A stretch of 64,000 nt of DNA from an uncultured Candidatus Peribacteria bacterium (GCA_964458485.1 CAYWJA010000003.1:30524-94523); one strand, 5' to 3'. Numbered from the stretch's first letter, positions 156 to 23,919 are shown. Program-made: numbers and translations. The notes: generated by a model from the letters alone, not told the origin.

Positions 156-2519
156 TTACTTATTCTTTCTCCTTCTGCCGATAATGGCAGCACCACCAAG
201 CATGGAAGCGGAAATTACAATCCATACTGCAACAGGACCACTTTTCGGCTGACTAGGTACTTTGGTCAAACTTGTATTAGAAAGTTTACTTGTTGTCTTT
301 TTTGCATTGCTATCGTTAGTAGTTGTTGTTTTCGAATCTGTAGATGAGCTAGTTGATTCAGTTTTAGCAGTAGAAGTGGATGAGCTTGTGTTTGATGATG
401 TTTGAGTAGCTACCACACCTGGCTGTAAATAACTTAAATATTTTGCCCCTTTCCCTGTAATAGTCACATTAGATGTTACTGGTAATTTTGAGCTAAGGTC
501 TTTAAGTGTTATGCCATCTATTGCTACATCTGTTTTATCTTTCGTTGTCACAAGTCTGCTATAAGTAATGGTGGCGATCTTATTAACAGCAATACTATCT
601 ATAATAATATTATTATTCTTATCTAACTTGGCCCCTGATAAATTTTCTATTGCACCAGCAGTCACATCACCGGTCGCAGAGCTAAAATATGGTTCAAGCT
701 GAATATTTGCTGCTGAAACTGCACTCGGATTTTTAATATTCATCTTAAAATAAACACGGGTGGTTTTGTTTTTTGGTAAAACAAGACCTGAACTTTTTAC
801 GCTTGCCTCTTTATATACATTGCCATCAATAGATGCTAATTTGCTGACTTCTAATCTTAATTCTCCAATATACATGGTACCTCCGCCGGAAGATGAAGTA
901 GAAGAATGACCTCCTCCGCCCAAGCCACCACCGGATGAAGAACTGCTTGAGCTACTGCCAGATCCACCAGACGAAGAAGATGAACCGGAAGAAGAACTTG
1001 ATGAAGAACTACTGGAGCTACTACTGGAAGAACTTGAAGATGAGCCAGATGATTTTTTAATATATTTCCCCACATAAACATGACTAGCTCCTGAAATAAG
1101 ATTAAATGTTATATCTTTTGGTGTTGTAAACCCGGATATTGCTTTAAATACAATTTTATATTGTATTCCAGGGCTAACACTTGATTTAAGCATAAAATTG
1201 TCTGGAGTCTTCCCTGAGCCATAATTATCTATATAAGTTGGATCGGTAACTGAAGAAATAGTATAAAAACCACTCAAGTTATTGGTACTAACTGTGATTT
1301 GTGTAGTTTCACTTGAAAGTGAAGAACTACCACTACTTTTTGATGAACTTGAGCTGGAAGATGAACTACTACCGGAGCTACTACCAGATGAAGAACTTAT
1401 ATATGTTCCTTCAAATCTTAGTGGCTTGCCGGTAATCAAATTGAATGTAATGTCTTTTGGTTTTGTGAAACCTATTACACTATCAAAAATTATCATATAT
1501 TTTGTACCGGGCTCCCCCATGGAACTCAAATTAAACGTTTTCTCACCTATCCCATATCTTGGTTCATCTAACAGATTGGTAAGGGATCTGATTGTGTACT
1601 TACCCTTTTCTATATTTGGCTTAACCGTTACGCTTGTAACACCTCTGGATGAAGAACTAGTGTTATCTGACGAAGTACTAATATATGTACCAGAGAATCT
1701 TTGTGGCTGATTAGTAATTAAACTAAAAGTAATATCTCTTGGGGTTATATAACCTGTAACACTATCGAATGTGATTTTATATTTTAATCCCGGGTTATCT
1801 CCTGAGCTTAAATTTATAGTAGATTCTCCTGTTCCCGTTCTTGGTTCATCTATTGGATTGTCAATTGATCGAATAGAATATTTACCATCAGAAATATTTG
1901 TTGAAACAGTTACAGCTGTGTAGCCTGTTGGAATAACGGCAGTAGAAGTTTTTTTTGCTATTTGATCAGATGGCCTTGTGGCCGGTTTAGTTGGATCAAT
2001 TGCATCGGACTTTGAATCTGTAAGCCCATCTGTTGGCACCTTAGCAGGCTTGGTTGGGTCGATCGCAACAGGAGCCTTTGTTTTATCCGTAATTTGATCA
2101 GATGGTAATTGTGTAATTTTAGTCGAATCGGTGGTCTTATCCACCATTTTGTCACTAGGCGTTTTTGGAGGGTATACATCATCCTTAAAAACCGGAACTT
2201 TTGTTAATGAGTCTGTTGGTACCTCCGCAGGCTTTGTGGGATCTGTGACTACGGGGGTCTTTTCAACTTTTTCTATAGTTGTTTTTACTGTTGTATCTGT
2301 TGTTGTTAAATCTCCTTTTAATAACTTCGATAATTGATTGAAGTTAAGTGCACCTGCAACAACTAAAACTATAAATACAGAAGCTAACCCAATAAATAAT
2401 GGTTTTTTGTATATTGGTATACTTTGAGCCGATTTATTTACAGGCTGTGCAGTATTTTGTGTGGGCGTTTGTGCCGTCACATTACCCTGTGTGTTTTGTG
2501 GGTTATTTTCTGTGTTCAT
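156..2519 (-). CDS. Large cell-surface repeat protein (787 aa) with Ser/Gly linkers and a C-terminal sorting-signal-like tail
   Basis: Long ORF. N-terminal hydrophobic segment PLFIGLASVFIVLVVAGAL. Pro/Thr-rich PTKPA-type repeats. Three ~85-aa repeats (KYKITFDSVTGYITPRDITFSLI / KYMIIFDSVIGFTKPKDITFNLI / QYKIVFKAISGFTTPKDITFNLI) separated by long Ser runs. C-terminus is VPSQPKSGP + hydrophobic helix + GRRRKNK. Confidence 0.8.
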   Translation of the reverse strand: MNTENNPQNTQGNVTAQTPTQNTAQPVNKSAQSIPIYKKPLFIGLASVFIVLVVAGALNFNQLSKLLKGDLTTTDTTVKTTIEKVEKTPVVTDPTKPAEVPTDSLTKVPVFKDDVYPPKTPSDKMVDKTTDSTKITQLPSDQITDKTKAPVAIDPTKPAKVPTDGLTDSKSDAIDPTKPATRPSDQIAKKTSTAVIPTGYTAVTVSTNISDGKYSIRSIDNPIDEPRTGTGESTINLSSGDNPGLKYKITFDSVTGYITPRDITFSLITNQPQRFSGTYISTSSDNTSSSSRGVTSVTVKPNIEKGKYTIRSLTNLLDEPRYGIGEKTFNLSSMGEPGTKYMIIFDSVIGFTKPKDITFNLITGKPLRFEGTYISSSSGSSSGSSSSSSSSSSKSSGSSSLSSETTQITVSTNNLSGFYTISSVTDPTYIDNYGSGKTPDNFMLKSSVSPGIQYKIVFKAISGFTTPKDITFNLISGASHVYVGKYIKKSSGSSSSSSSSSSSSSSSSSSSGSSSSSGGSGSSSSSSSSGGGLGGGGHSSTSSSGGGTMYIGELRLEVSKLASIDGNVYKEASVKSSGLVLPKNKTTRVYFKMNIKNPSAVSAANIQLEPYFSSATGDVTAGAIENLSGAKLDKNNNIIIDSIAVNKIATITYSRLVTTKDKTDVAIDGITLKDLSSKLPVTSNVTITGKGAKYLSYLQPGVVATQTSSNTSSSTSTAKTESTSSSTDSKTTTTNDSNAKKTTSKLSNTSLTKVPSQPKSGPVAVWIVISASMLGGAAIIGRRRKNK

Positions 2520-2527
2520 TTTTTTTA

Positions 2528-3622
2528 TTATTTATTTATTTTAATTTTCCTCCCCTTTTTCCTCCCAAAAACAACTGCACCACCAAGGCCTGCCGCGGAA
2601 AAAATTAACCACCCAACAAGTGGGCCGTTTTGCGGCTGCAAAGGAATACTGGCAACTGTTTTTTGAAATAAGGTGGCAAAAGGATGCGTTGAGCTAAGTG
2701 GCTGATTTACTATCACACCTACTTCATTTGAGTAATCACTTTCCTTATTATTACTATCGTAAGCAGTTACTGCAAAATAGTAGGTTTGATTATTGGTAAG
2801 ACCACTAAGTCGGTAACTGGTTAAATTTCCTATAACTCTACGTCTGGAATATTGACCACTAACTTGTCCGTAATAAATATTGAAACCAGACCTATATAAA
2901 TCAGTTGTACCATCCCATTTTAAATCAACATATCCAGACCCTGTATTAACTTTAAGATTTGTAGGGCGTTTTAATGTTATTACCGATGTACCCCCTCCTA
3001 TATTTGTATTTAATGTGGTTACTGGTGTTGAAGTTGTAGTTGTTACCACAGGTGGTGTTGTAACCGTTGGAGCTGCAATAACTCCTGGATTTAATGTAAT
3101 AGATAATTCTGCTGGTTTTTTAGATAAAATATTTAAAGGAAATCCTGAATCAATTATATTTACACTCGCATGGCCAAGTTCACTTACCTGATAATCATAA
3201 AAGCTGATTTTGGATGTTGCAGCAGTAGCTGCAATAACCTCAAAGTTCACAGAGGCTACTGTTGTTTCTGTCTTCGTTACACCTCCGGAAATATTAGATC
3301 GGCCAATTTTAACACGCCCTTCAGATGAAGCAACTGTATCTTCCCCTGGCGCAGATAATGTAAAAAGTGAACTTTTTGTATCTATTCCAGTGGCTTTTAA
3401 AGACTTTGCATCATAAGTTAACCAAGATCGAACGGAGATTATCTTATTTGCACTTGGATTCTTTAATACAATATCCACCTTAAATTTATCGCCTTTCTTG
3501 GCACTAGTTACAGAAGATTTCAGCATAAGCTCTGCATCTTTTGTAGCTGCTGCGTATGTTGGCACAATCCCTGATAGGATTATTACTATTGCCGTTAGTG
3601 TTGTTATTAGTTTTTTCATCAT
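2528..3622 (-). CDS. Secreted cohesin-like + FN3 protein with C-terminal sorting-signal-like tail (candidate anchoring scaffoldin)
   Basis: Signal peptide (..GIVPTYAAA). Residues ~28-165 are cohesin-like (KGDKFKVDIVLKNPSANKIISVRSWLTYDAKSLKA..VASVNFEVIA). Residues ~219-305 are FN3-like (PTNLKVNTGSGYVDLKWDG..YYFAVTAYDSNNKESDYSNEV). C-terminus is IPLQPQNGP + hydrophobic helix + GRKKGRK. Confidence 0.75.
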   Translation of the reverse strand: MMKKLITTLTAIVIILSGIVPTYAAATKDAELMLKSSVTSAKKGDKFKVDIVLKNPSANKIISVRSWLTYDAKSLKATGIDTKSSLFTLSAPGEDTVASSEGRVKIGRSNISGGVTKTETTVASVNFEVIAATAATSKISFYDYQVSELGHASVNIIDSGFPLNILSKKPAELSITLNPGVIAAPTVTTPPVVTTTTSTPVTTLNTNIGGGTSVITLKRPTNLKVNTGSGYVDLKWDGTTDLYRSGFNIYYGQVSGQYSRRRVIGNLTSYRLSGLTNNQTYYFAVTAYDSNNKESDYSNEVGVIVNQPLSSTHPFATLFQKTVASIPLQPQNGPLVGWLIFSAAGLGGAVVFGRKKGRKIKINK

Positions 3623-3623
3623 T

Positions 3624-3727
3624 CCTATTGGTGATCCTATTGGTGATCCGATTGGTGATCCGATTGGGGTTAAGCGGTTAAGCCCCTATTGGATTCCCTA
3701 TGGATCTCCCATTGGATTCCCTATTGG
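3624..3727. repeat. Tandem-repeat-armed hairpin, ATTGGTGATCC family
   Basis: Left arm (CCTATTGGTGAT)x4-like. Right arm CCCCTATTGGATTCCCTATGGATCTCCCATTGGATTCCCTATTGG. Loop around TTAAGCGGTTAAGC. Confidence 0.85.
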
Positions 3728-4347
3728 TTAATAATTAAAAGTGGGCTACTCGGTTTTTCGAGTACGTTATAAGGTCTTGTATCGATTAATGTATTTGCGG
3801 AAGTATGTCCGGTTAAATCTTCACGATAGTCATAGGCATCAATTGCAGCACTTTTTCCTTCTAAAACTTCAAAAGTAACTACTGCAACGTGTATTTCTTT
3901 GTCTGTAACAGCTGTAGAGCTAGAACGCCCCAATTTCATTAAGCCATTTGTACTATCGAATGCATTAGCATATGGTGCATTAAGCGTAAAAGCTGATTTT
4001 GCAACATCAACTTCCACACCTTTTAACTTCGTTGGATCATAACTCAACCAACTTTGTACCGAAGTTATTGGCTTTTGATTTGTATTATCTAAAACAATGG
4101 TTACTTTTACTTTTTTATCTTCCTTTGTGGATTTAAGCACTAATTTCACATCTTTTGCAGCAACTTTGGCTTTTTTTAATGTTTCCTGAATGCTCTCTGT
4201 TGTAGATTTTTTTGATGTTTTTACAGTTTTGGTTATCGATTTTTTATTGTCGACTTTTGAAACTGCACTATCATCCTTACAACCAGTAAGTAAACTGGAA
4301 AGGATTAGAATGACTGCCGTTGCGATGATTATATCCTTAGGTTTCAT
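3721..4347 (-). CDS. Lipoprotein with a single cohesin-like module
   Basis: Lipobox LSSLLTGC after an N-terminal hydrophobic stretch. Module KVKVTIVLDNTNQKPITSVQSWLSYDPTKLKG..IHVAVVTFEVLEG parallels the cohesin-like module of 2528-3622. Confidence 0.7.
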   Translation of the reverse strand: MKPKDIIIATAVILILSSLLTGCKDDSAVSKVDNKKSITKTVKTSKKSTTESIQETLKKAKVAAKDVKLVLKSTKEDKKVKVTIVLDNTNQKPITSVQSWLSYDPTKLKGVEVDVAKSAFTLNAPYANAFDSTNGLMKLGRSSSTAVTDKEIHVAVVTFEVLEGKSAAIDAYDYREDLTGHTSANTLIDTRPYNVLEKPSSPLLIINQ

Positions 4348-4373
4348 AATTGTTTGGGTTATTTTTGTTTTTT

Positions 4374-4430
4374 AGGTTGTAGGCTTATAGGTTGTAGGCT
4401 TGTAGGGATCTATTATAATCCTACATCCTA
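4374..4430. repeat. GTAGGCTTGTAGG-family hairpin (short right arm)
   Basis: AGGTTGTAGGCTTATAGGTTGTAGGCTTGTAGGGATCTATTATAATCCTACATCCTA. Shares unit and loop with 25051-25124. Confidence 0.8.
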
Positions 4431-4437
4431 ATTTTTA

Positions 4438-7400
4438 TTATTTAGTTGGTATTGTTGGTATTTTTGGAGATGAAGTAGTCTTAATAACAGTCCCACCGGC
4501 TGGCACAGATGTTGTAGGTACTGTTGAATCTGGTGTCTTTTTTATAGGTTTTAATACCTGACCAGATGTTGTTGTAGTGGTAGTTGTTGTACTTGCGCTA
4601 GATGCTGCAGATGAACTTGTGGTTTTGCCCGTACTATATGTTTTTCCATACATCGCAGAGAACATCGTAAAGTCTATAAAATCTACTTTTCCATCACCAT
4701 TAAAATCTCCCTGCATAGTAGTGGCCGCCTTTTTAACTGCACTAACATTTACAGCCTTAAAGAATTTTGCAACCGGAGCCTTCATTTTAACTCCTCCGGC
4801 AGAAGCAATATTTTTTATTTGTACACTATAACGCTTGCCAGATGTTTGAGTTGCAGTTTTTAAAATAATATCTTTACCTGTTTTTCCGAATGCAACTGAG
4901 TAAATAGGTAATTTTGTAGATGAATTTTCAGGGAATATTTCAAAATCATAACTGCCTCCATTCGAACTTGATGATTTACCAAGTTTTACACTTGAAGGCC
5001 TTAGTGGTTTCTGAAATTCAATTTCTACAGTATTAGAAGATGTAGCAGACACATAATGTACAACCGGCGGCCAAGTATTTGCTGTATACCCCTTAAAGAA
5101 TGCCTTAGTTGTTCCGGAAGAAAGAGAAATACCAGATGAATCTGTTATTTTGCCGCTGCCATTTACTGCATACTCAGTGCCTGACGTTTGACTTGCTGTA
5201 GTAAGGGTAACTATATTATTTGTTGCATTAATGGTGGCACCAATTACATTTAGAGTTTTACTTACGTTGTTCTTGTCGGTAATTGTAAATTCTTTACCAC
5301 TTGCTGATATTGTTGAAGATAATATTTCTTCATTAAATGTAACCTCAAGCTGTGTAGAAGACGTAGGAACTGCTGCTACAATTTTTGGAGGAGTACTGTC
5401 TGCTGTATAGCCTTTACTGTCTTTTACAATAACGGCAATTTTACCCCTTCCTACTTTTCCGCTTTTATCTGTAGCTACAACTTCGACATCGTAAGCTTTG
5501 GAGCTACCTAGTGTAGTTTTTGCAATAGTAACTCCGGATAGTACAAACCATTGGCCGGCACTTCCTTCTTTATAGCTCGGCTTCATACACACAATAGTTT
5601 TTGAATTTGTATTACATGCACTGCTAACAGATGATGAGCTACTGGTACTAGTACTGGTTTTAGATGAGCTTGTACCAATTCCTATACTACTTGCGCTAGT
5701 GGTAGTACTGGCTTGCTTAAAATCAGGTGGTGTTACAGCACCTAATTGTCCAATTTTAGAAAGATTTACAATTACTGATGACAAATCGCTATCATCATCA
5801 CGCACGAATGCATAAAGTGTAGTGGTTGTCTTGCCGTCGTTAATTGCAACTTTTGGAGATGTATATGATTTTGAAGAAAGAACTATTGGTGCATCTCCAA
5901 CTATTTTCGGATTGGCTAAGTCTAATTGTAAAATCATACTTGCTGTTGTGCCATTTGAATCTGTAGCAATAACCTGAATTTTATGGACACCATAAGTTGC
6001 TGTTTTTGGGGGAATAATTGCTTTTGATGAATAAAGCGCGCTTTTTGCAGTTTTAGAAGCAGTTGTGCTTGCTGTTAACGCGGTAGGTGTAATGCCCATT
6101 GAAGATGAATAAGCAACTACGCTAGTAATATCACTTATGCCACTAGAGTCGCTAACCATTGCATTTACAGTAAATGAAGTTTTTCCATCTCTTGCAATTC
6201 TTTTCCCTGGAGAAACGTAGCTATTTACACTATCAATTTTTGGTCCGGTTGCTGCAGCAGATACATTTACACTTATTGTTTTTGTAACACTTTCACCAGT
6301 GCTATCTGAAGCAGTAATTTTTACTGAATATGTTTTCTGCGTAGCAGTTGTAGGTATAGTGAATTTATCAGAAACATAAAATCCTGTTGTTTGTTCTGTC
6401 GGAGTACTGGCTGTTTTTGTAGTACTTGTAGTTGATGTAGATGCAGTAGTTGATGTAGATGCAGTAGCTGATTTCAATGTTACGAATCCGGCACCTAAAG
6501 CTCCTAAGTCTGCTACAACTGATTTAATAGTACCAATTCCATCAGTATCCGTAATTTTTGCAGAAATTGTTGCAGTAGTTTTACCGTCTGGCGGAATAGT
6601 AGTAGGGCTAATATATGCCTGATCTATCTTTGGTGCCACACTCTTGTAAATATCTTTAGTAACCATTAAAGAAACAGTACCTTTAACCGCCTCCGATCCT
6701 TTTTTAATTTCTACAGGCAATGCATATGCTGTAGTACTAGTTGGTGTGATTGTAGAAACTGTAGTTGTATATGTGTAATATTGTTGATTTTTTGGCTGAA
6801 TACCACTTGCCTTTGTTAAAAGTTGTGATTTATTACCACCAATTTGTGCAAGATTAATAATTGCACTATCTATATTATTCAAACCTACTTCATCTTCTAC
6901 AAGCACCCAGAAAGTCACCTTAGTTTTTCCATCTGGAGCTACTTTATAAGGTAATGCTTTGGAACTTGCAGATACAATTTTCATTTGTTTTTTAAGTCCG
7001 CTTACTACCAATGCCTTAGAAAAAGTTGTTGTTTCACTACTTTTGTTTATAAATTTAAGATCATAAACTCCTGCAGTAAAAGCCTTGGCAACTGTAAAGC
7101 TTAATGCTCCTGAACTTTGTTTGGCAATTTTTGCCTCTACAGTGCCAACAAGTACTTTCGTAACTGTATCTAAATTTGTACCAACTGCTACAACTGTTTT
7201 ATCAGCATCATTTGTAATAGTAGATGGAGTAACCTTAGTTACACTAATTGAAGCTGCTTTGTACCCAATAAAGTTCATTAAAGTATTATTTACCAATTTT
7301 AATCCACCTGAGTCTGTTACTCCGTTGAATCTGATAAAGTAATTTTTGTCTGCAATTAATTTAGGAAGTGTTACATTTATTGTTGTACCTGCTGTATCTA

Positions 7401-8664
7401 GTTCAGTTTTTACAAGTGTTACCTTTGCGGAAGAATTATCATAAATTTCTATATTTATAGGGGTGACTGTACTAGATGTAAGCGCTCCGCTAAAAGTTAA
7501 TGCTACATTTGTACTTGATTTTACAGTCACAGTTTTTAGCAATACATCACTAACATTAATACCATCTGGGTTTTGGTATCCATCGAATTTAACTATATTA
7601 TATTTTGAACCTAATGCTCCTGTTGTATTACCCGTTATATTTTTATTCTTTAAGGTTAATACATATTGCTGTCCCTTCTGTAAATCTGCACTTGTTTTTA
7701 AAATTACTGTTTTTTGATCATAGCCTGTAAATGTTAAATGGCCATATCCAGTTACTGCACTTGATATAGCTACAGGTGTATTTGTTGAACTATGAGTTAA
7801 TACATAATCTGCTGCATTACCAACATTAGTTAAAAGGTCGGAAAAACGAACAACTATATGATCTTTACTTAATGCTTCTGCATTAAAAGCCCGCAGGTTC
7901 GCCTTGCTGGTTAGCTTTAATGTTCCCGTATCTATACTAGTAAAAGTTTTACTTGTTTTATAAGGAATTGATCCTGCAGCTGCCTCAACTACTTCAACAT
8001 TGGAGGTTGTCATAGTAATGCTGCTGCCAGCAGTACCACTAACCTTTGTAGATAATTTTATAAGAGGTCTTGTATCGTCCTTTTTCAAATTAACTGCTTT
8101 ACTTGAAAAAAGAGATACTGTTACTTCTCCGTTTGTACTTGTATTTACACTTTTTAAATCTGCAGACTGAAATACTGTACCGGTTGTAGCATTACTATCG
8201 AATACAATTGAATTGGTATTAAAAGTAAGTGCGGTTACTGGGCTATATTTTAATTTAAATTTAATACTATGTAATTTTACATCTGAGGTAATTGCACTCT
8301 GCCTTAATTTAACTGCTATATTTCCACTATCTGCATGACCTGCTGTGTAACTTGGAATATATAAAGCTGCAGATCCTGCCGGAGCTTTTTTAACCTCCGT
8401 AAGAGCTGCCCTGAACAAACTTGGATTTGTGTAGCCAAGTACACCCACCGCGACCGCAAATACAGCTGCCACACTTATTAGTGCATATTTTATTTTTGGG
8501 ACTTGATACCATTTCGCCGGTTGTGATTCCGATTGGTGATCCATTGGTGATCCATTGGTGATCCCATCGGGGTTATTGTGATCATCCGTTTGAGTTCCCC
8601 CATTGGATCCCTCCATTGGATCTCCTACTGGATCCCCTATTGATTGTGTGTTTGTTTCGTCCAT
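4438..8664 (-). CDS. Giant surface protein (1408 aa): N-terminal TM anchor, cohesin-like module, many Ig-like repeats, dockerin/EF-hand-like loop near C-terminus
   Basis: TM YALISVAAVFAVAVGVLG followed by NPSLFRA. Repeated beta-rich ~90-aa units with Thr/Ser linkers. DFNGDGKVDFIDFTMF near the C-terminus. The first ~55 codons are encoded by a repeat hairpin (8529-8643). Confidence 0.8.
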   Translation of the reverse strand: MDETNTQSIGDPVGDPMEGSNGGTQTDDHNNPDGITNGSPMDHQSESQPAKWYQVPKIKYALISVAAVFAVAVGVLGYTNPSLFRAALTEVKKAPAGSAALYIPSYTAGHADSGNIAVKLRQSAITSDVKLHSIKFKLKYSPVTALTFNTNSIVFDSNATTGTVFQSADLKSVNTSTNGEVTVSLFSSKAVNLKKDDTRPLIKLSTKVSGTAGSSITMTTSNVEVVEAAAGSIPYKTSKTFTSIDTGTLKLTSKANLRAFNAEALSKDHIVVRFSDLLTNVGNAADYVLTHSSTNTPVAISSAVTGYGHLTFTGYDQKTVILKTSADLQKGQQYVLTLKNKNITGNTTGALGSKYNIVKFDGYQNPDGINVSDVLLKTVTVKSSTNVALTFSGALTSSTVTPINIEIYDNSSAKVTLVKTELDTAGTTINVTLPKLIADKNYFIRFNGVTDSGGLKLVNNTLMNFIGYKAASISVTKVTPSTITNDADKTVVAVGTNLDTVTKVLVGTVEAKIAKQSSGALSFTVAKAFTAGVYDLKFINKSSETTTFSKALVVSGLKKQMKIVSASSKALPYKVAPDGKTKVTFWVLVEDEVGLNNIDSAIINLAQIGGNKSQLLTKASGIQPKNQQYYTYTTTVSTITPTSTTAYALPVEIKKGSEAVKGTVSLMVTKDIYKSVAPKIDQAYISPTTIPPDGKTTATISAKITDTDGIGTIKSVVADLGALGAGFVTLKSATASTSTTASTSTTSTTKTASTPTEQTTGFYVSDKFTIPTTATQKTYSVKITASDSTGESVTKTISVNVSAAATGPKIDSVNSYVSPGKRIARDGKTSFTVNAMVSDSSGISDITSVVAYSSSMGITPTALTASTTASKTAKSALYSSKAIIPPKTATYGVHKIQVIATDSNGTTASMILQLDLANPKIVGDAPIVLSSKSYTSPKVAINDGKTTTTLYAFVRDDDSDLSSVIVNLSKIGQLGAVTPPDFKQASTTTSASSIGIGTSSSKTSTSTSSSSSVSSACNTNSKTIVCMKPSYKEGSAGQWFVLSGVTIAKTTLGSSKAYDVEVVATDKSGKVGRGKIAVIVKDSKGYTADSTPPKIVAAVPTSSTQLEVTFNEEILSSTISASGKEFTITDKNNVSKTLNVIGATINATNNIVTLTTASQTSGTEYAVNGSGKITDSSGISLSSGTTKAFFKGYTANTWPPVVHYVSATSSNTVEIEFQKPLRPSSVKLGKSSSSNGGSYDFEIFPENSSTKLPIYSVAFGKTGKDIILKTATQTSGKRYSVQIKNIASAGGVKMKAPVAKFFKAVNVSAVKKAATTMQGDFNGDGKVDFIDFTMFSAMYGKTYSTGKTTSSSAASSASTTTTTTTTSGQVLKPIKKTPDSTVPTTSVPAGGTVIKTTSSPKIPTIPTK
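8529..8643. repeat. ATTGGTGATCC-family hairpin inside the 5' coding end of the 1408-aa gene
   Basis: CCGATTGGTGATCCATTGGTGATCCATTGGTGATCCCATCGGGG ... CCCCCATTGGATCCCTCCATTGGATCTCCTACTGGATCCCCTATTG. Confidence 0.85.
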
Positions 8665-8714
8665 TTTATTTTTGTTATTTATTTGTACGTGGACAAACGA
8701 TTGTCCACTTTCGA

Positions 8715-11700
8715 TTACTTATTTACTTTATTAAAAAGAACTGCAACGTCGATCATGTCGACATCTCCGTCACCGTCCATGTCCGCAGCCTGTTTTTGGG
8801 CTGCTGTAGCAGTTGGTAAATTACCTCCTGCAATCTGAAAAGCTATTAATGCGTCTATTGTTGTAATTTTTCCATCACCATCTACATCACCACTTGCCAC
8901 CTTACCTATATATATAGGCATTACAGCGCTTGTCACCTTTCCTGACTTATCAACTATTTGCAAAACTAATGTATAACTTCCATCCGCCATATTTGCATCA
9001 ACTGGAATTTGAACTGGAATTTCGTAAATTTTATAATACTTTGCAGTAGTTGTTGTACCTCCTCCAGAAGAAGGACTACTTGAAGATGAGCTGGAACTAC
9101 TTGAAGAACTGCTTGAACTTGAACTAGATGAACTTGAGCTACTTGAAGAACTGGATGTCCCACTAGTCGTTCCGCTACTCGCTGTTGTTACATTATTTAC
9201 ATGTGTAGTAGCTGTATACCAAACAGCGCTTTTATCATCTTTTATTGTCGGATAAGTTTTTTTCTCTGTTCTAACAATATAAGAATTGATCTGGTCAATG
9301 TCGGCAATTGTTTCCGGTGAAGTTACTTTTACACTCAATTTAACCTGCCCACCTTTCTCGGCAGGATTACTACCAATTCTTTTTATATAATCAATTATGG
9401 CTTTTGAAGACACCTCTACGGTTAATGTGTTAACACTATTAACCTTTGTCCCATCAGGCTTTGCTATCTGTACATATAAATTAGTAGTACCAGTTGTGTC
9501 GCCTTTTGCCAAAATGCCAGAAGTTAAATATTTGTTACTTAATTTGTTGGTAGGATTATATTTCCATGTAACGTCATTGAAATTTAATTCCTTCATGGAG
9601 CCATCTAGATATTTTCCAAGAATGCGCAATTTATAAGTTGAATTTGGATGCAATGCTAATTTGCTTTCTACAGCAGGGACAACTATCACCTCCCCGCTTG
9701 AGGTTGTAACATCCTCTAGAGAAATTGTGCTATCTGCAGGTGTTAATTTTAAAAGACCTGGTGTATTTGATACTTTTGTAACTTTAATAAATGGCTGACC
9801 ATTCAACTCACTCAGTGCATCGATTAATCCATCTTTTGTTGTAGCTTTGCCATCAGGATCATTTAATATAGCATTTATTTTGTCTTTTTCTGTTGTAGCT
9901 GTAGATGTGGAAGGTAGAGTAGGAATTATTTTTGTGGTACTTCCGATTGTTATTGTTGCACCTGCAGCCTTAGATGAATTAACCATAAGGTATGCACTTT
10001 TATATGCATTACTTTTATCCATTACATCTAATTTTGAGATTGTGTCTTTATGTAAGGTTAAAATAAGGCTCGACAAAGTACTGAATGCACTTTTTTCGCA
10101 TGCTAATTTTGTAGTTGTACTTTTAGATGACTTTCCGTAACCGTTTTTAGAATCACATACATCACATAATCCTGATGTGCCACCATATCCTGTATTGCAT
10201 TGACATTTTCCCGTTGTGGTGTTGTATTGCCCATATACACATTTTAGTAACGGAGCTTTTGCTTTTACCGTAACTAAACCTTGTCTAAAATTTATAGCAT
10301 TTTTTGTAGTTGCTGAGGCAGAAGTTGTATAATATGAATTTGACGTTGATTTTTCATCGGCGTCTATAAGAATCTTTGTACCATCTGCCAATCCAGACAA
10401 AATACTTGTTTGAATTCTAAACAATAAAGCATTATCAGCCACATTTTTAGCAACCGTAGGTTTAACCTTAAGAGTTATTGTATCTTTTCCGCTTAATGTA
10501 GTAGATAAAGTAGTAACTACTGTTTCTCCACTAAATATAGTATCTGGTGAATAATTATTAACAAAGGCATATTGACTCTGAGTAGCGGTCGAAACTGGCT
10601 TAAGTTTAATCTGCAGTTCTGTTAATCCTGTTATTGCCTGAGCTGCTTTCACATCTATATATCCTTTAGTGCCAGCCTCAGCTGTATAGTCTGCAGGGAT
10701 ATAAACATTACGCAATGGTGTAGATGTATCTGTGGAAACATTTTCTGTACCACCTTTAAATGTACTTGTGATTTTTGTGACGGGAGTAGCTGTCTTGGTT
10801 TTTAATGTACAAACTGAACTTTTTAATTCATAACCATCAAGACAAGTGGCACAATCCTTTTTCGGATCAAGATTGGAACCTGTAGCACAAGCAGTACATA
10901 CTGCTACACCCTTAGTAGCCTTACAAGTTCCTCCATTTTTCTTACATACATTAGATGTGGATGAACAAGGATCTGTAATACATTTATTAGAGGAATCTAA
11001 TACATAACCTGTACTACATTTACACTGACCTGTTGATGCATCACACGAGCTATTTGTATCACTACATGTAACTCCGTAACACTTATCTACAACACATGTT
11101 GGGTAGCCCTTAAAACCTGCACTACATTTGTCACATACGGTGGTTTTAGTGCCCGCATAACCAGTATTGCATGTACACTTGCCATCACTACAAGTGCCAT
11201 AACCACAGCTGATATTTTTACATGTGTCTATGGTTATTTGTCCTGATTTAAAACTTGGCGCACCTCCTATACCCCCAATCCCTAAATCAATATAAGACGA
11301 AGAAGATGCGGAGGTTGATATTTTTTTATTACGTATATATATAGTCTGTTTGTTTTTACTCTTATTGCTAACTGATACAAAAAGCTTAAACAATACATCA
11401 TTATCTTTGAACTCATATAATTTATTAAAAGGGCCAAATTCAACCGAATATTCGCCAATGCCAACATTAATTTTTTCACTTTCTTTTTCTAATTTTGCCC
11501 CTTTCTTATCAATCTTCCATATAGCATATTCGTCCGAAGAAATTATAAATGTCAATTTAAATGCTTTAACATTTTTTAAATTCCTTCCTGCTCTAACTTC
11601 CACATAATCAAAATCACCTGGTGCTGCAATATAATTTGGTATATAAAACATATCATCTATCTTTGATGTATCATTTGTGCCAAGTTGAAATTTATCGTAG

Positions 11701-12035
11701 CTACCAGTAGTTTTCCCAACAATTTGTGAGCCTCCTCTGGTTTGACTAGCTGTCGGATCTGTCGGTATAATTGGTGCAACACCTCTAGTATTTCTGGCAG
11801 CATCTATGGCTCTATCTTGCCCCTCTGCCGATTGTGGTCCACCAGCCCCCCCTTCCTCTTCCACTACGATTGCAGGAGCCCCTCTTCTACCTTCTCCAAT
11901 AGTTGCCTTAAACAAACTCGGATTCTTATAAGCCACAATGCTCAATGCAGTTACTACAACCACAACGAATACGGTTAGAATATTGCGCCATAGGTGGCTT
12001 GTTTTTTTGATTTCTGTTTGGTTTTCGTTTTCCAT
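8715..12035 (-). CDS. Giant surface protein (1106 aa): TM anchor, EGF-like Cys-rich region, cohesin-like modules, poly-Ser, C-terminal two-repeat dockerin
   Basis: TM ILTVFVVVVVTALSIVA followed by NPSLFKA. Cys-rich residues ~272-409 (CGYGTCSDGKCTCNTGYAG..QCKCSTGYVLD). 26-residue Ser run. C-terminus GDVDGDGKITTIDALIAF..ADMDGDGDVDMIDVAVLF matches the type-I dockerin duplicated Ca-binding pattern. Confidence 0.85.
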   Translation of the reverse strand: MENENQTEIKKTSHLWRNILTVFVVVVVTALSIVAYKNPSLFKATIGEGRRGAPAIVVEEEGGAGGPQSAEGQDRAIDAARNTRGVAPIIPTDPTASQTRGGSQIVGKTTGSYDKFQLGTNDTSKIDDMFYIPNYIAAPGDFDYVEVRAGRNLKNVKAFKLTFIISSDEYAIWKIDKKGAKLEKESEKINVGIGEYSVEFGPFNKLYEFKDNDVLFKLFVSVSNKSKNKQTIYIRNKKISTSASSSSYIDLGIGGIGGAPSFKSGQITIDTCKNISCGYGTCSDGKCTCNTGYAGTKTTVCDKCSAGFKGYPTCVVDKCYGVTCSDTNSSCDASTGQCKCSTGYVLDSSNKCITDPCSSTSNVCKKNGGTCKATKGVAVCTACATGSNLDPKKDCATCLDGYELKSSVCTLKTKTATPVTKITSTFKGGTENVSTDTSTPLRNVYIPADYTAEAGTKGYIDVKAAQAITGLTELQIKLKPVSTATQSQYAFVNNYSPDTIFSGETVVTTLSTTLSGKDTITLKVKPTVAKNVADNALLFRIQTSILSGLADGTKILIDADEKSTSNSYYTTSASATTKNAINFRQGLVTVKAKAPLLKCVYGQYNTTTGKCQCNTGYGGTSGLCDVCDSKNGYGKSSKSTTTKLACEKSAFSTLSSLILTLHKDTISKLDVMDKSNAYKSAYLMVNSSKAAGATITIGSTTKIIPTLPSTSTATTEKDKINAILNDPDGKATTKDGLIDALSELNGQPFIKVTKVSNTPGLLKLTPADSTISLEDVTTSSGEVIVVPAVESKLALHPNSTYKLRILGKYLDGSMKELNFNDVTWKYNPTNKLSNKYLTSGILAKGDTTGTTNLYVQIAKPDGTKVNSVNTLTVEVSSKAIIDYIKRIGSNPAEKGGQVKLSVKVTSPETIADIDQINSYIVRTEKKTYPTIKDDKSAVWYTATTHVNNVTTASSGTTSGTSSSSSSSSSSSSSSSSSSSSSSSSSSSPSSGGGTTTTAKYYKIYEIPVQIPVDANMADGSYTLVLQIVDKSGKVTSAVMPIYIGKVASGDVDGDGKITTIDALIAFQIAGGNLPTATAAQKQAADMDGDGDVDMIDVAVLFNKVNK

Positions 12036-12044: not shown

Positions 12045-12108
12045 AGGAGTCAGGAGTCAGGAGTCAGAAATCAGTACTGATTTCTTATTCCTTATTCCTT
12101 ATTCCTTA
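12045..12108. repeat. Tandem-repeat-armed hairpin (AGGAGTC x3 / TTATTCC x3)
   Basis: AGGAGTCAGGAGTCAGGAGTCAGAAATCAGTACTGATTTCTTATTCCTTATTCCTTATTCCTTA. Pairing needs G-U wobbles. Confidence 0.75.
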
Positions 12109-13113
12109 AGTTAATAAGTTCATAGCTAAAAGGATTCCGAGGCTCATAGATAGGGATTCCTCTAGTAAATTAAAATTAATATGTCTTACAATCGGTAAAT
12201 GTTTCCATAATCGAGAAAAATATTGAAACCGATTTTTGTGTGGTTCTGACTCCTTTAACATTTGCATAAGTTCTTTGTGCACATGGCTCCTACTCCAATG
12301 ATTTGTATATTTTTCTATTAAGATGTAACGAACTGTGGAGAATGTAATTAATGTAATGAAGTAAAGAGAAAGTGCCACTGCAAAAATTCCTGCAAAGAAG
12401 TAAACTATCATTGATCCGGTTAATGCAAAAAACATTGCCGTAATTATTTGTGCAGGATTTATGTAATCTTCTTTTGTTTTAAAATAAATTTTTGTAAGAC
12501 TATGTATTAAATAAATAATACTTGCTGTAACTGGTATCCAGATACTAGTTGATTTTGAAAGCAGGCTAAAATTTAATATATTCCACGATCCGTAAAGCAT
12601 TTCTGGAACCTTAACCATTAGGTTTAATCCCCAGAATGTAAAAAAGAATAAAGCTATTTGAGCAACAACAAGTATTGCACCACGATGATGAATTCTTTCG
12701 TTAACATCATAAATTTTATGTAATTCATCTTCAGCTGCACCAACGCTAAGTTCACCTCGGTTAAAACGATCCACAAGCTTCTTGTGAAATAGATGAATCT
12801 TTTTTTGTTTAAACTGAATTCTCGCACTTGGATACAAAAGTATTAATTCAACTGCAATAGCAAGAACTACGATGGAAATTAATACACTTCCACCTGACAT
12901 TTGCATTAAGCTGTTAAACACGATTGAAAAAATCTTAGCAACTTCTGCTTTGAACCCAGTGTAAACCAAAGGACTGACCTGTGCGCCGGTTAGCACACTT
13001 TCTGTAGCACTGTTGTGCAATTCTACACCAGATGTATTGCCTTGCATAAAGGCCAGGTAAACACTTAGTGCAAATAGTGTTAGTGTTGCTGTTATTAAAC
13101 TTAATTTTTTCAT
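12106..13113 (-). CDS. Polytopic membrane protein, probably a divergent YidC/Oxa1-type insertase
   Basis: Signal/TM at the N-terminus. The pattern GSVLISIVVLAIAVELILLYPSARIQFKQKK..ELHKIYDVNERIHHRGAILVVAQIALFFFTFWGL resembles the YidC TM2, coiled hairpin and TM3 layout. About 5 TM segments. Assignment is by eye only. Confidence 0.45.
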   Translation of the reverse strand: MKKLSLITATLTLFALSVYLAFMQGNTSGVELHNSATESVLTGAQVSPLVYTGFKAEVAKIFSIVFNSLMQMSGGSVLISIVVLAIAVELILLYPSARIQFKQKKIHLFHKKLVDRFNRGELSVGAAEDELHKIYDVNERIHHRGAILVVAQIALFFFTFWGLNLMVKVPEMLYGSWNILNFSLLSKSTSIWIPVTASIIYLIHSLTKIYFKTKEDYINPAQIITAMFFALTGSMIVYFFAGIFAVALSLYFITLITFSTVRYILIEKYTNHWSRSHVHKELMQMLKESEPHKNRFQYFSRLWKHLPIVRHINFNLLEESLSMSLGILLAMNLLT

Positions 13114-13622: not shown

Positions 13623-13643
13623 TCCGGGATGACAAATAGTGAA
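13623..13643. mobile_element. Solo right-end fragment of the MITE-like family
   Basis: TCCGGGATGACAAATAGTGAA shares GGGATGACAAATAGTGAA with the right end of copy c (18714-18734). Confidence 0.5.
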
Positions 13644-13737
13644 GCGATACTCCATTCAAAATAGGATGAAAATTATAGAGACAAATTTGCTTTTCCTCCC
13701 TGTTCATGCTATAATAAAGGGATATATTTGTATCTAT

Positions 13738-16341
13738 ATGCAAAGTAAAACAAAAAACATATTTAAAAAAATTGCGTTTTCACTGCTTTTTGCGGGAATA
13801 TTATGTATTCCAAATTTTGTAATGGCTGCTAGTGATCCTGGTGTTAAAAAATTAACAATTACACCAGATAAGCCAGGGCCTGGAGAATCAACAACCTTTG
13901 TGGCTACTTATGCAAACGAAGGCAATGCAAAATCCGGCAAGGTTGAACTGACAATCGATTACAATGAAAATATTTTTGAAAAAATTTCATTAAATGATTC
14001 AAAAAATTGTATCGACACAAAATTTACTGTTTATTGTACATTCGACAAATTACCCGCAAATTATACAAATACCATTAGCTTCAAGGCATCCGTAAAGTCA
14101 GCCGTAATAGTTGGTACTAAGTCTTTAGCAATTGCGCGAATAGATGATGTAAATAATCCAAATGACAATATCAAAAATAATTCCGCAAGTGCCACAACTA
14201 CTATTGCCCCAATGTCCAGCGGGAAAATATCTCAGGCGGGTCTCCCGGCGGCACTTGGATTAACAAAAAGTGTTAAATTAGAAAAGCCTTCTAAAAATCA
14301 GGGAGTTGCTGTTTTTGATGTAACAAATAATAAAAACTGGAAAACAAGCGGTCTTTTTACAACCGGTTTAAAGTTTATGATACGGGGTAAGGAAGCTTTG
14401 GCATGGACACTGGGTATTAGTGACGGTGGTTTTCATAATCCTGCGATAAAAAGCAGTTATTTAAAAGTTCTTACAATTGTTAATAGCTTGTTTATAATCG
14501 GACTTCTTGCGATCGCTGGCATGTGGATGTTTAGTATTTTGATTCCGAGAGCGTATTTAAAGCGAGTCGTATTAATTTATGGAATGGCTGTAATTTTTGT
14601 GAATTTCGCACTGCCGATGAATCAGCTTTTGATAGATACAACAAATCTTCTGCAAAAGACATTTATGGATGGTGTAAAGATTACAAATATTGTGGAAATT
14701 CCGAGTTATAACGATAAAAAAGCTGTTGGTTATCAGAATGAAACTGGTTTTCTTAAAAAAGCGGATACCAGCAAGCTTACATTCAATTTGAGTGATCCTA
14801 AAGTTGCGGCAAGTAGTACGTCGACAAAATCGACAGTAGCCGGTGCAGGTGCAAAAACTAAAACTACTACACCCACAATTACTGTCAAACCGACTAGTAT
14901 TAGTGTTGGGAAAATTACCCAGGATCCTTCAAAAACAAGTTTTATCGGTAATATAAAAAGTTCTAAAACAGCTGAGACAATTTCTTTATCTACTTATGGT
15001 AATGACCCGGAAATTAAATTAAACGCCAGCCAGAATGTTGAACTTATCAATTCAAATAAATTTAACCCAGACCAGGAACATTCAATTTTTGCTTTTGTAA
15101 TGATGATTCTTACGAGCCTTGCCTACTTTGGAATGGCATTAGTTCTAATATTACGGATCGTGATCTTATGGGCACTAATGATTGTATCTCCGGCACTATT
15201 CCTTCTAATAATCTTCCGTGCAACCCGTAGTTATTTTGTAAATTGGCTTGGGCTTTATGCAAGATGGTTACTAATTGGCCCACTAATGGCACTTGGAATT
15301 GCGGTTGTTGTGAACATATGGAAAACAACAGGACTGCCTATCACTAGTTCATATTCCGGAGGGCAGTTTGGTGTGTTTACTAATATCGGATTCTTTTTGC
15401 CTGGCAAAGATACAGCTAATACACTGAGTACAACGGGGCAAATGATGGAATATATTTTGTTTTTGATAATGCTATATCTGCCGATAATATTTGCATTTAT
15501 GCTAACCAGGCAAAAAACATGGGCTGGAGCACTTTCTACTATTATTAATAAAAAAGGTGCTGTGCAAAAGCCAATGGAGGATCCAATGGGAGGATCCAAT
15601 GGGAGGATCCAATCGGGGCAAGAAGGTAAAGAAGAATCTAAAGCTACATCTTTCACTCAAGATATTAAAGGATTTTTGAATGATAAATTTACAAAAACCA
15701 CTGCAACAGCAATACCTGGTAATATGAGAGGTGGTGATGTTACATCAGGTACCATTGCTACAGGAGAATCCAAACCTAAGATAGAAAATGCTGGACATTT
15801 TTTACCGGAAAATTTAGAAAAATCTGATATGAAGAGTATGGTTAATCTTGCATCAGGTGATAAAGGATCTCGCAATTCACATCAAAAAGCTATTGAAAAG
15901 TTAGCAAAGCCACAAAGTATTATAGACCCACAGGAAAGAAAAAAGGTTAGTGCGGTCAAAGAGGAAATTGGCAAACGTGCAGAACAAGGTGATGTGGAGG
16001 CTATACGTGTAATGGGGGAAATTAGTCAAGCTGAACAAAGTCCAGTAGGTGGATCCAATCGGGAATCCGTTGGGGACCCAGTTGGGGTAAGTACCGAAAT
16101 TGTAAAAGAAAAGGAGATAATTAAGGAAGAAAAACCCGAAAAAGATACGGCACAAACGTCAGGTGGTGCCGTAGGGGACGCACATGTGCGTCCTGATGAT
16201 ATGAAAAAAATAAATAAACCAAATGATGATGAAGATTCTGACGAAGATGCTGTAGATCCGCAACACGATGCGGATACAGATAAGGAGGACGAAGATGAAT
16301 CTGATGAGATAAAAGAGGAAAGGAAAAGTCGTCGCAAGTAG
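13738..16341 (+). CDS. Polytopic membrane protein, VirB6/TrbL-like candidate, with N-terminal beta-sandwich domain and long acidic C-terminal tail
   Basis: The ORF track starts at GTG 13639, inside a MITE fragment. ATG 13738 gives a normal signal peptide (MQSKTKNIFKKIAFSLLFAGILCIPNFVMAAS). About 6 further TM helices. It sits directly upstream of three pilin-module genes. The tail contains repeat-derived segments. Confidence 0.6.
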   Translation: MQSKTKNIFKKIAFSLLFAGILCIPNFVMAASDPGVKKLTITPDKPGPGESTTFVATYANEGNAKSGKVELTIDYNENIFEKISLNDSKNCIDTKFTVYCTFDKLPANYTNTISFKASVKSAVIVGTKSLAIARIDDVNNPNDNIKNNSASATTTIAPMSSGKISQAGLPAALGLTKSVKLEKPSKNQGVAVFDVTNNKNWKTSGLFTTGLKFMIRGKEALAWTLGISDGGFHNPAIKSSYLKVLTIVNSLFIIGLLAIAGMWMFSILIPRAYLKRVVLIYGMAVIFVNFALPMNQLLIDTTNLLQKTFMDGVKITNIVEIPSYNDKKAVGYQNETGFLKKADTSKLTFNLSDPKVAASSTSTKSTVAGAGAKTKTTTPTITVKPTSISVGKITQDPSKTSFIGNIKSSKTAETISLSTYGNDPEIKLNASQNVELINSNKFNPDQEHSIFAFVMMILTSLAYFGMALVLILRIVILWALMIVSPALFLLIIFRATRSYFVNWLGLYARWLLIGPLMALGIAVVVNIWKTTGLPITSSYSGGQFGVFTNIGFFLPGKDTANTLSTTGQMMEYILFLIMLYLPIIFAFMLTRQKTWAGALSTIINKKGAVQKPMEDPMGGSNGRIQSGQEGKEESKATSFTQDIKGFLNDKFTKTTATAIPGNMRGGDVTSGTIATGESKPKIENAGHFLPENLEKSDMKSMVNLASGDKGSRNSHQKAIEKLAKPQSIIDPQERKKVSAVKEEIGKRAEQGDVEAIRVMGEISQAEQSPVGGSNRESVGDPVGVSTEIVKEKEIIKEEKPEKDTAQTSGGAVGDAHVRPDDMKKINKPNDDEDSDEDAVDPQHDADTDKEDEDESDEIKEERKSRRK
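15571..15618. repeat. GGATCCAAT-type repeat arm inside the VirB6-like CDS
   Basis: CCAATGGAGGATCCAATGGGAGGATCCAATGGGAGGATCCAATCGGGG, translated PMEDPMGGSNGRIQSG. Confidence 0.8.
16042..16088. repeat. Second GGATCCAAT-type repeat arm inside the VirB6-like CDS (same orientation)
   Basis: CCAGTAGGTGGATCCAATCGGGAATCCGTTGGGGACCCAGTTGGGG, translated PVGGSNRESVGDPVG. Confidence 0.75.
16171..16193. repeat. GTAGGGGACGCA-CATG-TGCGTCC palindrome, in frame in the VirB6-like CDS
   Basis: Variant of the GGACGCAGATCTGCGTCC family with a CATG centre. Encodes VGDAHVRP. Confidence 0.8.
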
Positions 16342-16360
16342 CCTTATTTCGCATTTACAC

Positions 16361-16470
16361 TTTGTCATCCCGGACTTGCCTGCCCCGCCATAGGCGTGGG
16401 ATCCGGGATCCACCGATTGCGGGCAAACCATGGATCCTGATCCCGATAAAATCGGGACAGGATGACAAAA
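16361..16470. mobile_element. MITE-like element, short copy b (110 bp)
   Basis: TTTGTCATCCCGGACTTGCC...CCCGATAAAATCGGGACAGGATGACAAAA with three internal GGATCC sites. Lies between the VirB6-like stop and the first pilin start. Confidence 0.75.
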
Positions 16471-16477
16471 AACAAAA

Positions 16478-17143: not shown

Positions 17144-17217
17144 TTTTTATTTTTTAATTTTTAATTTTTATTGAACTACTAATTAGTTAGCCAAATAAAA
17201 ACTAAAAACTAAAAATT
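17142..17217. repeat. AT-rich tandem-repeat-armed hairpin between pilin genes
   Basis: AGTTTTTATTTTTTAATTTTTAATTTTTATT..CTAATTAG..AATAAAAACTAAAAACTAAAAATT. Confidence 0.7.
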
Positions 17218-17535: not shown

Positions 17536-17565
17536 GAAGCTGTTTTGACTTATGGATAGGTTTAT

Positions 17566-17720
17566 ATTTCTGATTTCTGATTTTTGATTTCAGATTCGAT
17601 TTAGTATTTAGTATTTTTACATTTACTATCTGATTATTTAATTAATATGGTTAGTAAATGATAAATATCAGAATCCTAAATCTAGATTCGAATCTGAAAT
17701 CTGAGTTCTGAAATCTGAGA
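17566..17720. repeat. ~155-bp imperfect palindrome (TCTGATTTC units)
   Basis: ATTTCTGATTTCTGATTTTTGATTTCAGATTCGA... ...TCGAATCTGAAATCTGAGTTCTGAAATCTGAGA. Confidence 0.8.
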
Positions 17721-20897: not shown

Positions 20898-20898
20898 G

Positions 20899-23911: not shown

Positions 23912-23919
23912 AATTTTAT

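Follow-up and report, generated by a model that had tools for sequence, protein, structure and literature searches.

What purpose can cohesin and dockerin modules serve in a locus that encodes no glycoside hydrolase? The question is raised by a run of minus-strand genes in a stretch of 64,000 nucleotides from an uncultured Candidatus Peribacteria bacterium (GCA_964458485.1, CAYWJA010000003.1:30524-94523; hereafter the window, to whose first letter all coordinates refer), in which a sequence-only reading had recognised a cellulosome-style set of small anchored cohesin proteins beside giant dockerin-bearing adhesins. According to the analysis presented here, and with a probability of roughly 0.55, the locus is a lineage-specific envelope cassette of Peregrinibacteria, with a core common to Gracilibacteria, that would form a calcium-dependent and non-enzymatic surface assembly, in which we infer that cohesins and dockerins pair.

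Five consecutive minus-strand genes had been proposed, and the open reading frames (ORFs) of 787, 364, 208, 1408 and 1106 amino acids lie exactly where they had been placed (156-2519, 2528-3622, 3721-4347, 4438-8664 and 8715-12035). The extent of the unit, which had been drawn from 156 to 12035, has required an extension at its far end, as one more gene belongs to it, coding for a YidC-like protein (12106-13113). In the direction of transcription the cassette thus reads YidC-like protein, giant 1 (1106 residues), giant 2 (1408 residues, p1408), a lipoprotein cohesin (p208), a cohesin-FN3-tail protein (p364, FN3 denoting fibronectin type III) and a second tail protein (p787). Together these proteins hold five cohesins, a canonical dockerin of two repeats and a lone dockerin repeat, the count of five cohesins resting on Pfam for p364 and p208, on AlphaFold and Foldseek for giant 2, and on the homology of both giant 1 modules to the module of giant 2. 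The claim that the gene set is free of glycoside hydrolases holds as well: neither a glycoside hydrolase or other family of carbohydrate-active enzymes nor a further dockerin has been found in the scanned ORFs of the window, no family of carbohydrate-binding modules (CBMs) in any cassette protein (Pfam) or elsewhere in the window, and no dockerin-bearing enzyme or glycoside hydrolase in about 500 kb of DNA flanking the cassette in about 25 related loci.

Cohesin and dockerin modules of the cassette

The two small proteins have been read as one cohesin with an FN3 domain and as a lipobox with one cohesin, and both architectures are borne out. p364 (2528-3622) comprises a signal peptide (3551-3622), a cohesin (3104-3553), an FN3 domain (2726-2968) and a candidate sorting tail (2531-2644), and p208 (3721-4347) a lipobox (LTGC, 4279-4290) and a cohesin (3754-4155). 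Measured against the Pfam cutoffs of 24.1 bits for Cohesin (PF00963), 25 for fn3 (PF00041), 22.9 for Dockerin_1 (PF00404), 27 for DUF4625 and 35 for 60KD_IMP (PF02096), both cohesins score above threshold (32.3 bits at residues 39-143 of p364, 34.3 bits at residues 70-167 of p208), as does the FN3 domain (29.1 bits, residues 219-299). The AlphaFold2 model of p364 agrees, with a predicted local distance difference test (pLDDT) of 84-96 for the cohesin and of about 76-89 for an FN3 domain of seven strands, a disordered Thr/Pro linker and a C-terminal helix. Its best Foldseek match in the PDB has been found to be 2w1n, the cohesin-FN3 double module of Clostridium perfringens GH84C (E 1.7e-14), and type I cohesins come next with TM-scores up to 0.78. 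By sequence, p364 has found only a marginal match to Coh5 in the PDB (E 0.018), and a PDB search with p208 alone has returned no cohesin. The cohesins of p208 and p364 are paralogs (42% identity, E ~1e-26), and through this homology p208 is assigned a cohesin fold as well, which it probably adopts. The lipobox of p208, with its cysteine at position 23, fits the pattern [LVI][ASTVI][GAS]C and reads LAGC, FNGC, LTSC, LTAC or LSSC in orthologs, in which the gene always follows directly after that of giant 2.

Regarding the giants, internal cohesin-like modules had been claimed for both, and here Pfam fails: none of their modules in the window matches the Cohesin family, only 2 of 26 orthologous modules do (best E 2e-5), and phmmer and BLASTP searches with the p364 and p208 cohesins have returned nothing in the giants. 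Yet the profile search of the PDB has matched cohesins only, and the best structural matches of the AlphaFold model are cohesins too. Giant 2 (4438-8664) carries its module directly behind the membrane anchor (residues 95-262, 7879-8382), and with 14 orthologs as alignment the module has been modelled as an all-beta domain with a pLDDT of 93 and a predicted TM-score of 0.86. All 40 of its 40 best Foldseek matches in the PDB are cohesins of types I, II and III (best E 2.3e-6, TM-score up to 0.71), and the profile of the giant module has matched, over the whole domain, the cohesins 4uyp, 5m2o and 5aoz alone (E 0.0014-0.0086). For this module and for the p364 cohesin, the models accordingly agree with the nine-stranded, flattened jelly-roll sandwich of cohesins. 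The N-terminal module families of giant 1 and giant 2 orthologs are homologous to each other (hhalign probability 98.7%), and the relation of the giants' N-modules to the p364 and p208 cohesins is merely suggestive in local hhalign (26% probability, P 7e-4). Through homology to the giant 2 module, two modules of giant 1 (8715-12035) are likewise taken as probable, divergent cohesins; a local hidden Markov model of the giant 2 N-modules matches module a (residues ~127-270, 11226-11657) at residues 130-244 with an E of 5.7e-5 and module b (residues ~442-595, 10251-10712) at residues 443-595 with an E of 2e-11. Failed cohesin models together with a fold other than that of cohesins, one outcome upon which the sequence-only reading was to be given up, have thus not been found.

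The dockerin side of the system is most complete in giant 1, where a textbook duplicated dockerin had been read at 8718-8900. Indeed, a two-repeat dockerin forms the extreme C-terminus (residues 1049-1106, 8718-8891), Dockerin_1 being matched with 42-46.7 bits over positions 2-57 of the 57 of the model (residues 1049-1105, 8721-8891), and both 12-residue calcium loops are canonical (D-x-D-x-D-G-x-(I/V)-(T/D)-x-x-D). In the PDB its matches are the dockerins 8x3a_A (E 1.2e-8) and 4uyq_B (E 6.4e-5), and Dockerin_1 is the top Pfam family in 14 of 15 C-termini of giant 1 orthologs. Directly before it lies the end of a conserved beta-domain (residues 1000-1044, 8904-9038), which shows weak DUF4625 and RbmA-like FnIII matches at residues 1002-1043 and invariant G, Y, I and G columns in the ortholog alignment; the combination recalls the pairs of X-module and dockerin, in what may be a resemblance only. 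Giant 2 had been credited with a single dockerin loop, and only the first repeat of Dockerin_1 is matched there (positions 2-23; 17.7-19.5 bits, below the cutoff), namely by GDFNGDGKVDFIDFTMFSAMYG (residues 1319-1340, 4645-4710), a calcium loop with its helix, which aligns over both elements with one repeat of the dockerin 2y3n_B. Dockerin_1 has also been the top Pfam family in 20 of 24 C-termini of giant 2 orthologs. In Peregrinibacteria these proteins show one repeat, ADLNGDGKVDFxDFTxFSxVYG, followed by a conserved PDSTVPxTSxPAGG; the corresponding C-terminal motif is PDSTVPTTSVPAGG here (residues 1378-1391, 4492-4533) and PDSTVP(H/I/T)TSxPAGG in most orthologs. As the ortholog from a Gracilibacteria locus (L034) has two repeats, 32 residues apart, the repeat of giant 2 is best read as a dockerin-derived half module. 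Dockerin-type loops are restricted, in the window and in about 500 kb of flanking DNA from the Candidate Phyla Radiation (CPR), to proteins of the cassette, apart from a single dockerin/EF-type calcium loop, DTDGDGYITISD, at residue 31 of the second T4SS_pilin protein of the window (17854-18540, plus strand).

Both giants are predicted to be anchored at the N-terminus, as had been supposed from one transmembrane (TM) helix each and a shared NPSLF(R/K)A motif. The single helix of giant 1 (residues 18-36, 11928-11984; Kyte-Doolittle mean 2.39 over 19 residues) is preceded by K10, K11 and R17 and followed by NPSLFKA (residues 38-44, 11904-11924), and that of giant 2 (residues 60-78, 8431-8487, from hydropathy and sequence) lies behind a predicted cytoplasmic N-region of ~57 residues and before NPSLFRA (residues 80-86, 8407-8427), which is kept in orthologs. 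Most orthologs of the giants show the motif Y-x-N-P-x-L-F-(R/K)-A directly after the TM helix, where it may serve as a processing site or in recognition by the insertase or a partner. For these termini a Sec signal peptide that is cleaved off has been considered and is disfavoured, since one hydrophobic helix of 19 residues behind a charged N-region of 17-57 residues favours a signal anchor; the N-terminus of the giants accordingly looks like an uncleaved one. Between anchor and dockerin-type module, giant 2 possesses an Ig-like stalk of DUF4625/Big_5 type, with DUF4625 at 30.4 bits in residues 745-801 (6262-6432) as one of two matched stretches. Giant 1 holds Ig-like domains and Cys-rich EGF-like regions, one of them at residues 272-410 (10806-11222). 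The EGF-like repeats that had been claimed are visible there in the spacing of the cysteines, but remain sub-threshold in Pfam (EGF_Teneurin 18.5 bits with a cutoff of 24.3, EGF_2 15.8 bits).

The first gene of the cassette (12106-13113, minus strand) encodes a protein of 335 residues, with at least four hydrophobic helices, that matches 60KD_IMP over positions 2-162 of 163, with 24.6 bits below the cutoff, and the near-complete model TIGR03592 with 23.9 bits. PF02096 is listed in the precomputed Pfam assignments of its orthologs. We class it as YidC-like only, a candidate membrane insertase of the YidC/Oxa1 type. In nearly all Peregrinibacteria loci, giant 1 has this gene as its immediate upstream neighbour. 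In L017, L023 and L032 an extra gene stands between the two (e.g., 849-2306 in L032), which encodes thrombospondin-type-3-like calcium-binding repeats (DTDSDGILDCNDNC). On the other side, a VirB6/TrbL-like membrane protein of 900 residues and two T4SS_pilin proteins (13639-18540, plus strand) are divergent from the YidC-like gene, and this virB6-yidC adjacency is repeated in L012, L014 and L027.

Candidate sorting tails and conservation of the cassette

The second tail-bearing protein, p787 (156-2519), has an N-terminal TM helix (2346-2402), three repeats (1059-1913) and a tail (159-254). The repeats have been delimited by direct reading (VTVSTNISDGKYSIRS, VTVKPNIEKGKYTIRS, ITVSTNNLSGFYTISS), with about 80-100 residues each and long poly-Ser tracts between them; p787 matches no Pfam family, repeats included, and self-BLAST of p787 and p1408 for repeats has returned the identity match only. 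Among genomes p787 is conserved only in the N-terminal segment of TM helix and QFxxLLKGxLFD and in the C-terminal tail, and every locus has, at the corresponding position, an analog with a (T/Q)P-x-(T/S)-G-P tail. Both p364 and p787 end with a motif, a hydrophobic helix and a basic tail, that of p787 being 44% identical to that of p364. The motif reads QPQNGP in p364 and SQPKSGP in p787. Orthologs of p364 show QPQNGP without exception, the gene that follows shows (T/Q)P-x-(T/S)-G-P, and all loci taken together give the consensus x-P-x-(T/S/N)-G-P. Exactly two proteins per locus carry such a tail, and none elsewhere in about 500 kb of flanking CPR DNA. Regarding the C-terminal sorting tail that had been claimed for p364, the layout is as expected, but the motif is not the canonical LPXTG. 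The LPXTG_anchor model TIGR01167 is passed only by the p787 tail scanned in isolation (18.2 against 15.9 bits), and only 2 of 29 tails match at all, because of which the family is regarded as lacking a curated model; NCBIfam holds no model covering it. Judged from sequence, the family is a variant of sortase-signal-like tails without a curated model, and a sorting signal, of sortase type or similar, is the most likely reading of the tail.

The order of the six genes recurs in about 25 loci from different Peregrinibacteria metagenome-assembled genomes (MAGs), down to about 45% identity, and is kept in essentially all loci whose length allows it to be seen; synteny in related genomes had been proposed as a check by the sequence-only reading. 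More than 120 ortholog clusters have been obtained for p364, full length and with 50-80% identity, many invariant columns and an invariant PQNGP, and the named ones belong to Candidatus Peregrinibacteria or Patescibacteria. Among GTDB representative genomes, full-length p364 orthologs occur only in Peregrinibacteria/Peribacteria and more distant ones in Gracilibacteria and 'Altimarinota', and other phyla match in the FN3 domain only. The Gracilibacteria locus L034 contains giant 2, the lipoprotein and both tail proteins. Orthologs of giant 1 range from 559 to 1409 residues, all at the same position of the cassette, and their domain content varies among genomes as well (EGF-like, Big_2). A homologue search with the N-terminal region of giant 2 has remained empty, and the full-length query has returned orthologs; the exact sequences of the giants are not present in the protein collection searched. 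The public names of the cassette proteins are 'hypothetical', 'fibronectin type III domain-containing', 'Ig-like' or 'IPT/TIG', and 17 orthologs of giant 2 are called at best 'Ig-like' or 'IPT/TIG domain-containing protein'. Our literature searches have returned no paper on cohesins and dockerins of Peregrinibacteria or on a comparable cassette in the CPR. The Peribacteria genome paper mentions neither cohesin nor dockerin; it reports sortase A, S-layer genes and large exported Cys-rich proteins in these genomes (PMC4736985).

The small AT-rich genome that had been supposed agrees with the organism, a CPR bacterium (Peregrinibacteria) whose related complete genomes measure 1.2-1.4 Mb, and with a GC content of about 35% in the window, which climbs to 0.40 over the last 4 kb. 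The rest of the window has the content of an ordinary bacterial chromosome (T4SS-pilin, VirB6-like, an arginine cluster, uvrB, secDF, topA, groEL and an aminoacyl-tRNA synthetase). A mobile element or an assembly artefact has been considered and rejected, since five independent contigs from metagenomes bear the same genes and the synteny of the cassette extends over about 25 MAGs. Promoter and terminator scans have found sites no more frequently than in shuffled sequence and are uninformative on operon boundaries.

The proposed assembly and its alternatives

Among known systems, the closest likeness is given by the anchoring and adaptor scaffoldins of cellulosomes, of which the cassette is best read as a non-enzymatic variant. 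ScaE of Ruminococcus flavefaciens, a single type III cohesin with LPXTG (PDB 2zf9) that is itself among the structural matches of the giant 2 cohesin, resembles p364 as a small exported one-cohesin protein with motif, TM helix and basic tail, by which it would be kept on an envelope of Gram-positive type. p364 differs from it in the additional FN3 domain, in QPQNGP instead of LPXTG and in its presumed ligands, which would be giant non-enzymatic proteins rather than a cellulosome. A cohesin with a sortase-signal-like tail in p364, one with a lipobox in p208 and the C-terminal dockerin of giant 1 support the domain logic of anchoring scaffoldins that the sequence-only reading had put forward, with p364 and p208 as candidate anchors. 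The giants had been regarded as adhesin-like cargo; they are not simple cargo, however, because they are anchored in the membrane at the N-terminus and carry cohesins of their own, and in this they resemble adaptor scaffoldins. Clostridium thermocellum OlpA/OlpC/SdbA and Acetivibrio cellulolyticus ScaA/ScaB likewise combine one or more cohesins with a C-terminal dockerin behind an Ig-like module and dock on single-cohesin anchors, and the cohesins of OlpA, OlpC, ScaB and ScaC have been the top structural matches of the giant 2 and p364 models (Foldseek). Unlike these clostridial scaffoldins, the giants are N-terminally membrane-anchored with membrane-proximal cohesins, one 'dockerin' is a single repeat, no CBMs or dockerin-bearing enzymes lie nearby, and the anchors would be a lipid and a sortase-like tail instead of S-layer homology (SLH) domains. 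The match of p364 to 2w1n is a reminder that cohesin-dockerin systems exist outside cellulose degradation too, although the modules of the C. perfringens toxin complexes sit on secreted glycoside hydrolases, whereas here no enzyme is involved and the modules belong to envelope-anchored structural proteins. Within the CPR, transposon sequencing of the Saccharibacterium Southlakia epibionticum has shown the dockerin-domain envelope protein SEML1_0315 to be essential, with no cohesin partner reported (PMC10633639). It is likewise an envelope protein with a dockerin domain, and it counts for growth on the host; it belongs to another CPR class, no cassette has been reported for it, and it is likened here by description only.

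In the assembly that we propose, the YidC-like insertase together with Sec would insert the two giants as type-II (N-in) membrane proteins. Each would expose a cohesin at the membrane, a long Ig-like stalk, with Cys-rich EGF-like regions in giant 1, and a terminal dockerin-type module, while p208 with its lipid anchor and p364 with its C-terminal tail would supply more cohesin sockets at two depths of the envelope. Calcium-loaded dockerins would then plug into cohesins and so link the giants with the anchors, with one another or with the cohesins of a neighbouring cell, and the product would be a cross-linked coat for surface architecture and/or adhesion. The helix faces of the dockerin-type modules differ (DVIxAFQ / DVIxLFN in one case, DFTxFSxVYG in the other) and the cohesins of the cassette fall into three sequence classes, from which we infer that distinct cohesin-dockerin specificities within the cassette are plausible.

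Several observations weigh against this assembly. Each of the five cohesins stands close to the membrane and each of the two dockerin-type modules at the distal end of an N-anchored giant, so that pairing in cis needs fold-back loops and binding in trans would bridge cells. Giant 2 has one dockerin repeat only, below the Pfam cutoff, and its calcium loop alone also resembles FG-GAP and EF-hand loops. No sortase has been found in the window or the fetched loci, as searched by a TLxTC expression and by Pfam for the sizeable ORFs of the window, and the tail deviates from LPXTG. Finally, L028 and L029 hold both small cohesins without giant 1 in the cassette, and the Altimarinota locus L033 consists of the two tail proteins only, with no giants nearby; the parts of the cassette may therefore not be strictly interdependent.

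Taking into account that the cassette is universal in the lineage and its anchors are conserved with 50-80% identity, a core envelope structure fits at least as well as a variable adhesin, and a structural role is favoured by how strongly the anchors and giant 2 are conserved. Taken further, this leads to a housekeeping envelope lattice, an S-layer-like canopy with cohesin-dockerin joints in which adhesion to a host or partner has no specific part. We regard such a lattice as somewhat unlikely, even though the cassette is found in essentially every Peregrinibacteria locus examined, always beside the YidC-like gene, the conservation of p364 is unusually high for a surface protein, and the orthologs of giant 2 contain Big_5/DUF4625 Ig-like domains. 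Domains of this kind are common in S-layer and surface proteins. It is opposed by giant 1, whose changing length and domain content favour an exposed, diversifying element as expected of an adhesin, by the lack of any detected lattice-forming family, and by a separate SLH-type anchoring system in the window.

If instead the cohesins recruited dockerin-bearing hydrolases, such as glycosidases or proteases, encoded elsewhere in the genome, the giants would be scaffoldins for the degradation of host or environmental polymers and the cassette a cellulosome-like enzyme display. The architecture is indeed that of anchoring and adaptor scaffoldins, the five cohesins outnumber the two dockerin-type modules, and in Cloacimonadota dockerin-bearing peptidases and glycoside hydrolases with scaffoldin-like proteins have been inferred (PMC8542988); neither the window nor the flanking DNA in about 25 genomes has yielded a glycoside hydrolase, a CBM or another dockerin, and we consider this display improbable. 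The likeness to cellulosomes could also be coincidental, with cohesins as generic beta-sandwich spacers or binders of other ligands and dockerin repeats as calcium-binding stabilisers. Most non-cellulosomal cohesin and dockerin modules reportedly have no demonstrated partner, the sub-cutoff repeat of giant 2 with its FG-GAP- and EF-hand-like loop agrees with such a role, and so does the divergence of the giants' cohesins beyond the reach of Pfam. Domains without pairing would hardly be expected, however, to stand together as cohesins and dockerins in one operon over a whole bacterial class, with dockerin-type loops restricted to its proteins and a terminal dockerin behind a conserved beta domain as in functional X-dockerin arrangements, and we give this explanation little credit.

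The calcium-dependent surface assembly thus remains the preferred reading. A bolder extension of it, unlikely as it stands, would make the cassette a surface 'Velcro' of a whole CPR class: the giants would join head-to-tail or bridge cells in trans, giving calcium-dependent cohesion between cells or between symbiont and host; the repeat of giant 2 would be a split dockerin needing a second copy, a mode not seen in cellulosomes; and the tail would be a sorting signal new and specific to the CPR, served by a processing enzyme of its own. The envelope organisation and partner attachment of CPR/Patescibacteria are largely unknown, and almost none of these bacteria have been cultured. Small and well defined, the modules of the cassette lend themselves to expression and to assays of calcium-dependent binding that require no culture of the organism. 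If they pair, a major radiation of uncultured bacteria would be seen to use the cohesin-dockerin principle, so far one of enzyme display, for envelope architecture or adhesion, and naturally orthogonal cohesin-dockerin pairs would become available for protein engineering. The single-repeat dockerin and the uncurated C-terminal sorting signal would then come to light as unexplained features, to which the juxtamembrane motif and the dedicated YidC-like gene may be added.

Further genes of the window

The whole window has yielded neither a tRNA gene nor any Rfam family that reaches its gathering threshold. Two adjacent large ORFs of 1069 and 483 residues (50927-55591, minus strand) are without any Pfam match, and likewise the ORFs at 45136-46434, 23955-25007 and 28599-29588. 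A Fic/DOC protein with a helix-turn-helix domain, a pentapeptide-repeat protein and a small RNase H/RVT_3-like protein (32537-34346, minus strand, and 43964-44491, plus strand) bear no apparent relation to the cassette. Regarding the cell surface, the ORF at 34472-36736 (plus strand) encodes a trypsin-like serine protease that bears SLH domains (97.6 bits), and SLH-type wall anchoring therefore coexists with the lipobox and tail anchors of the cassette. A SecD/SecF-type protein (41469-43829, plus strand) has shown an unusual fusion, in which a PpiC-type peptidyl-prolyl isomerase domain is placed between the N-terminal P1 segment of SecD and the P1 head. Finally, a near-complete arginine biosynthesis cluster (18650-27337, minus strand) comprises an argH-like lyase, an AstE/AspA-type deacylase, argB, argD, argC, an ORF of 350 residues, ornithine carbamoyltransferase and argG, a notable biosynthetic capacity for a CPR genome.

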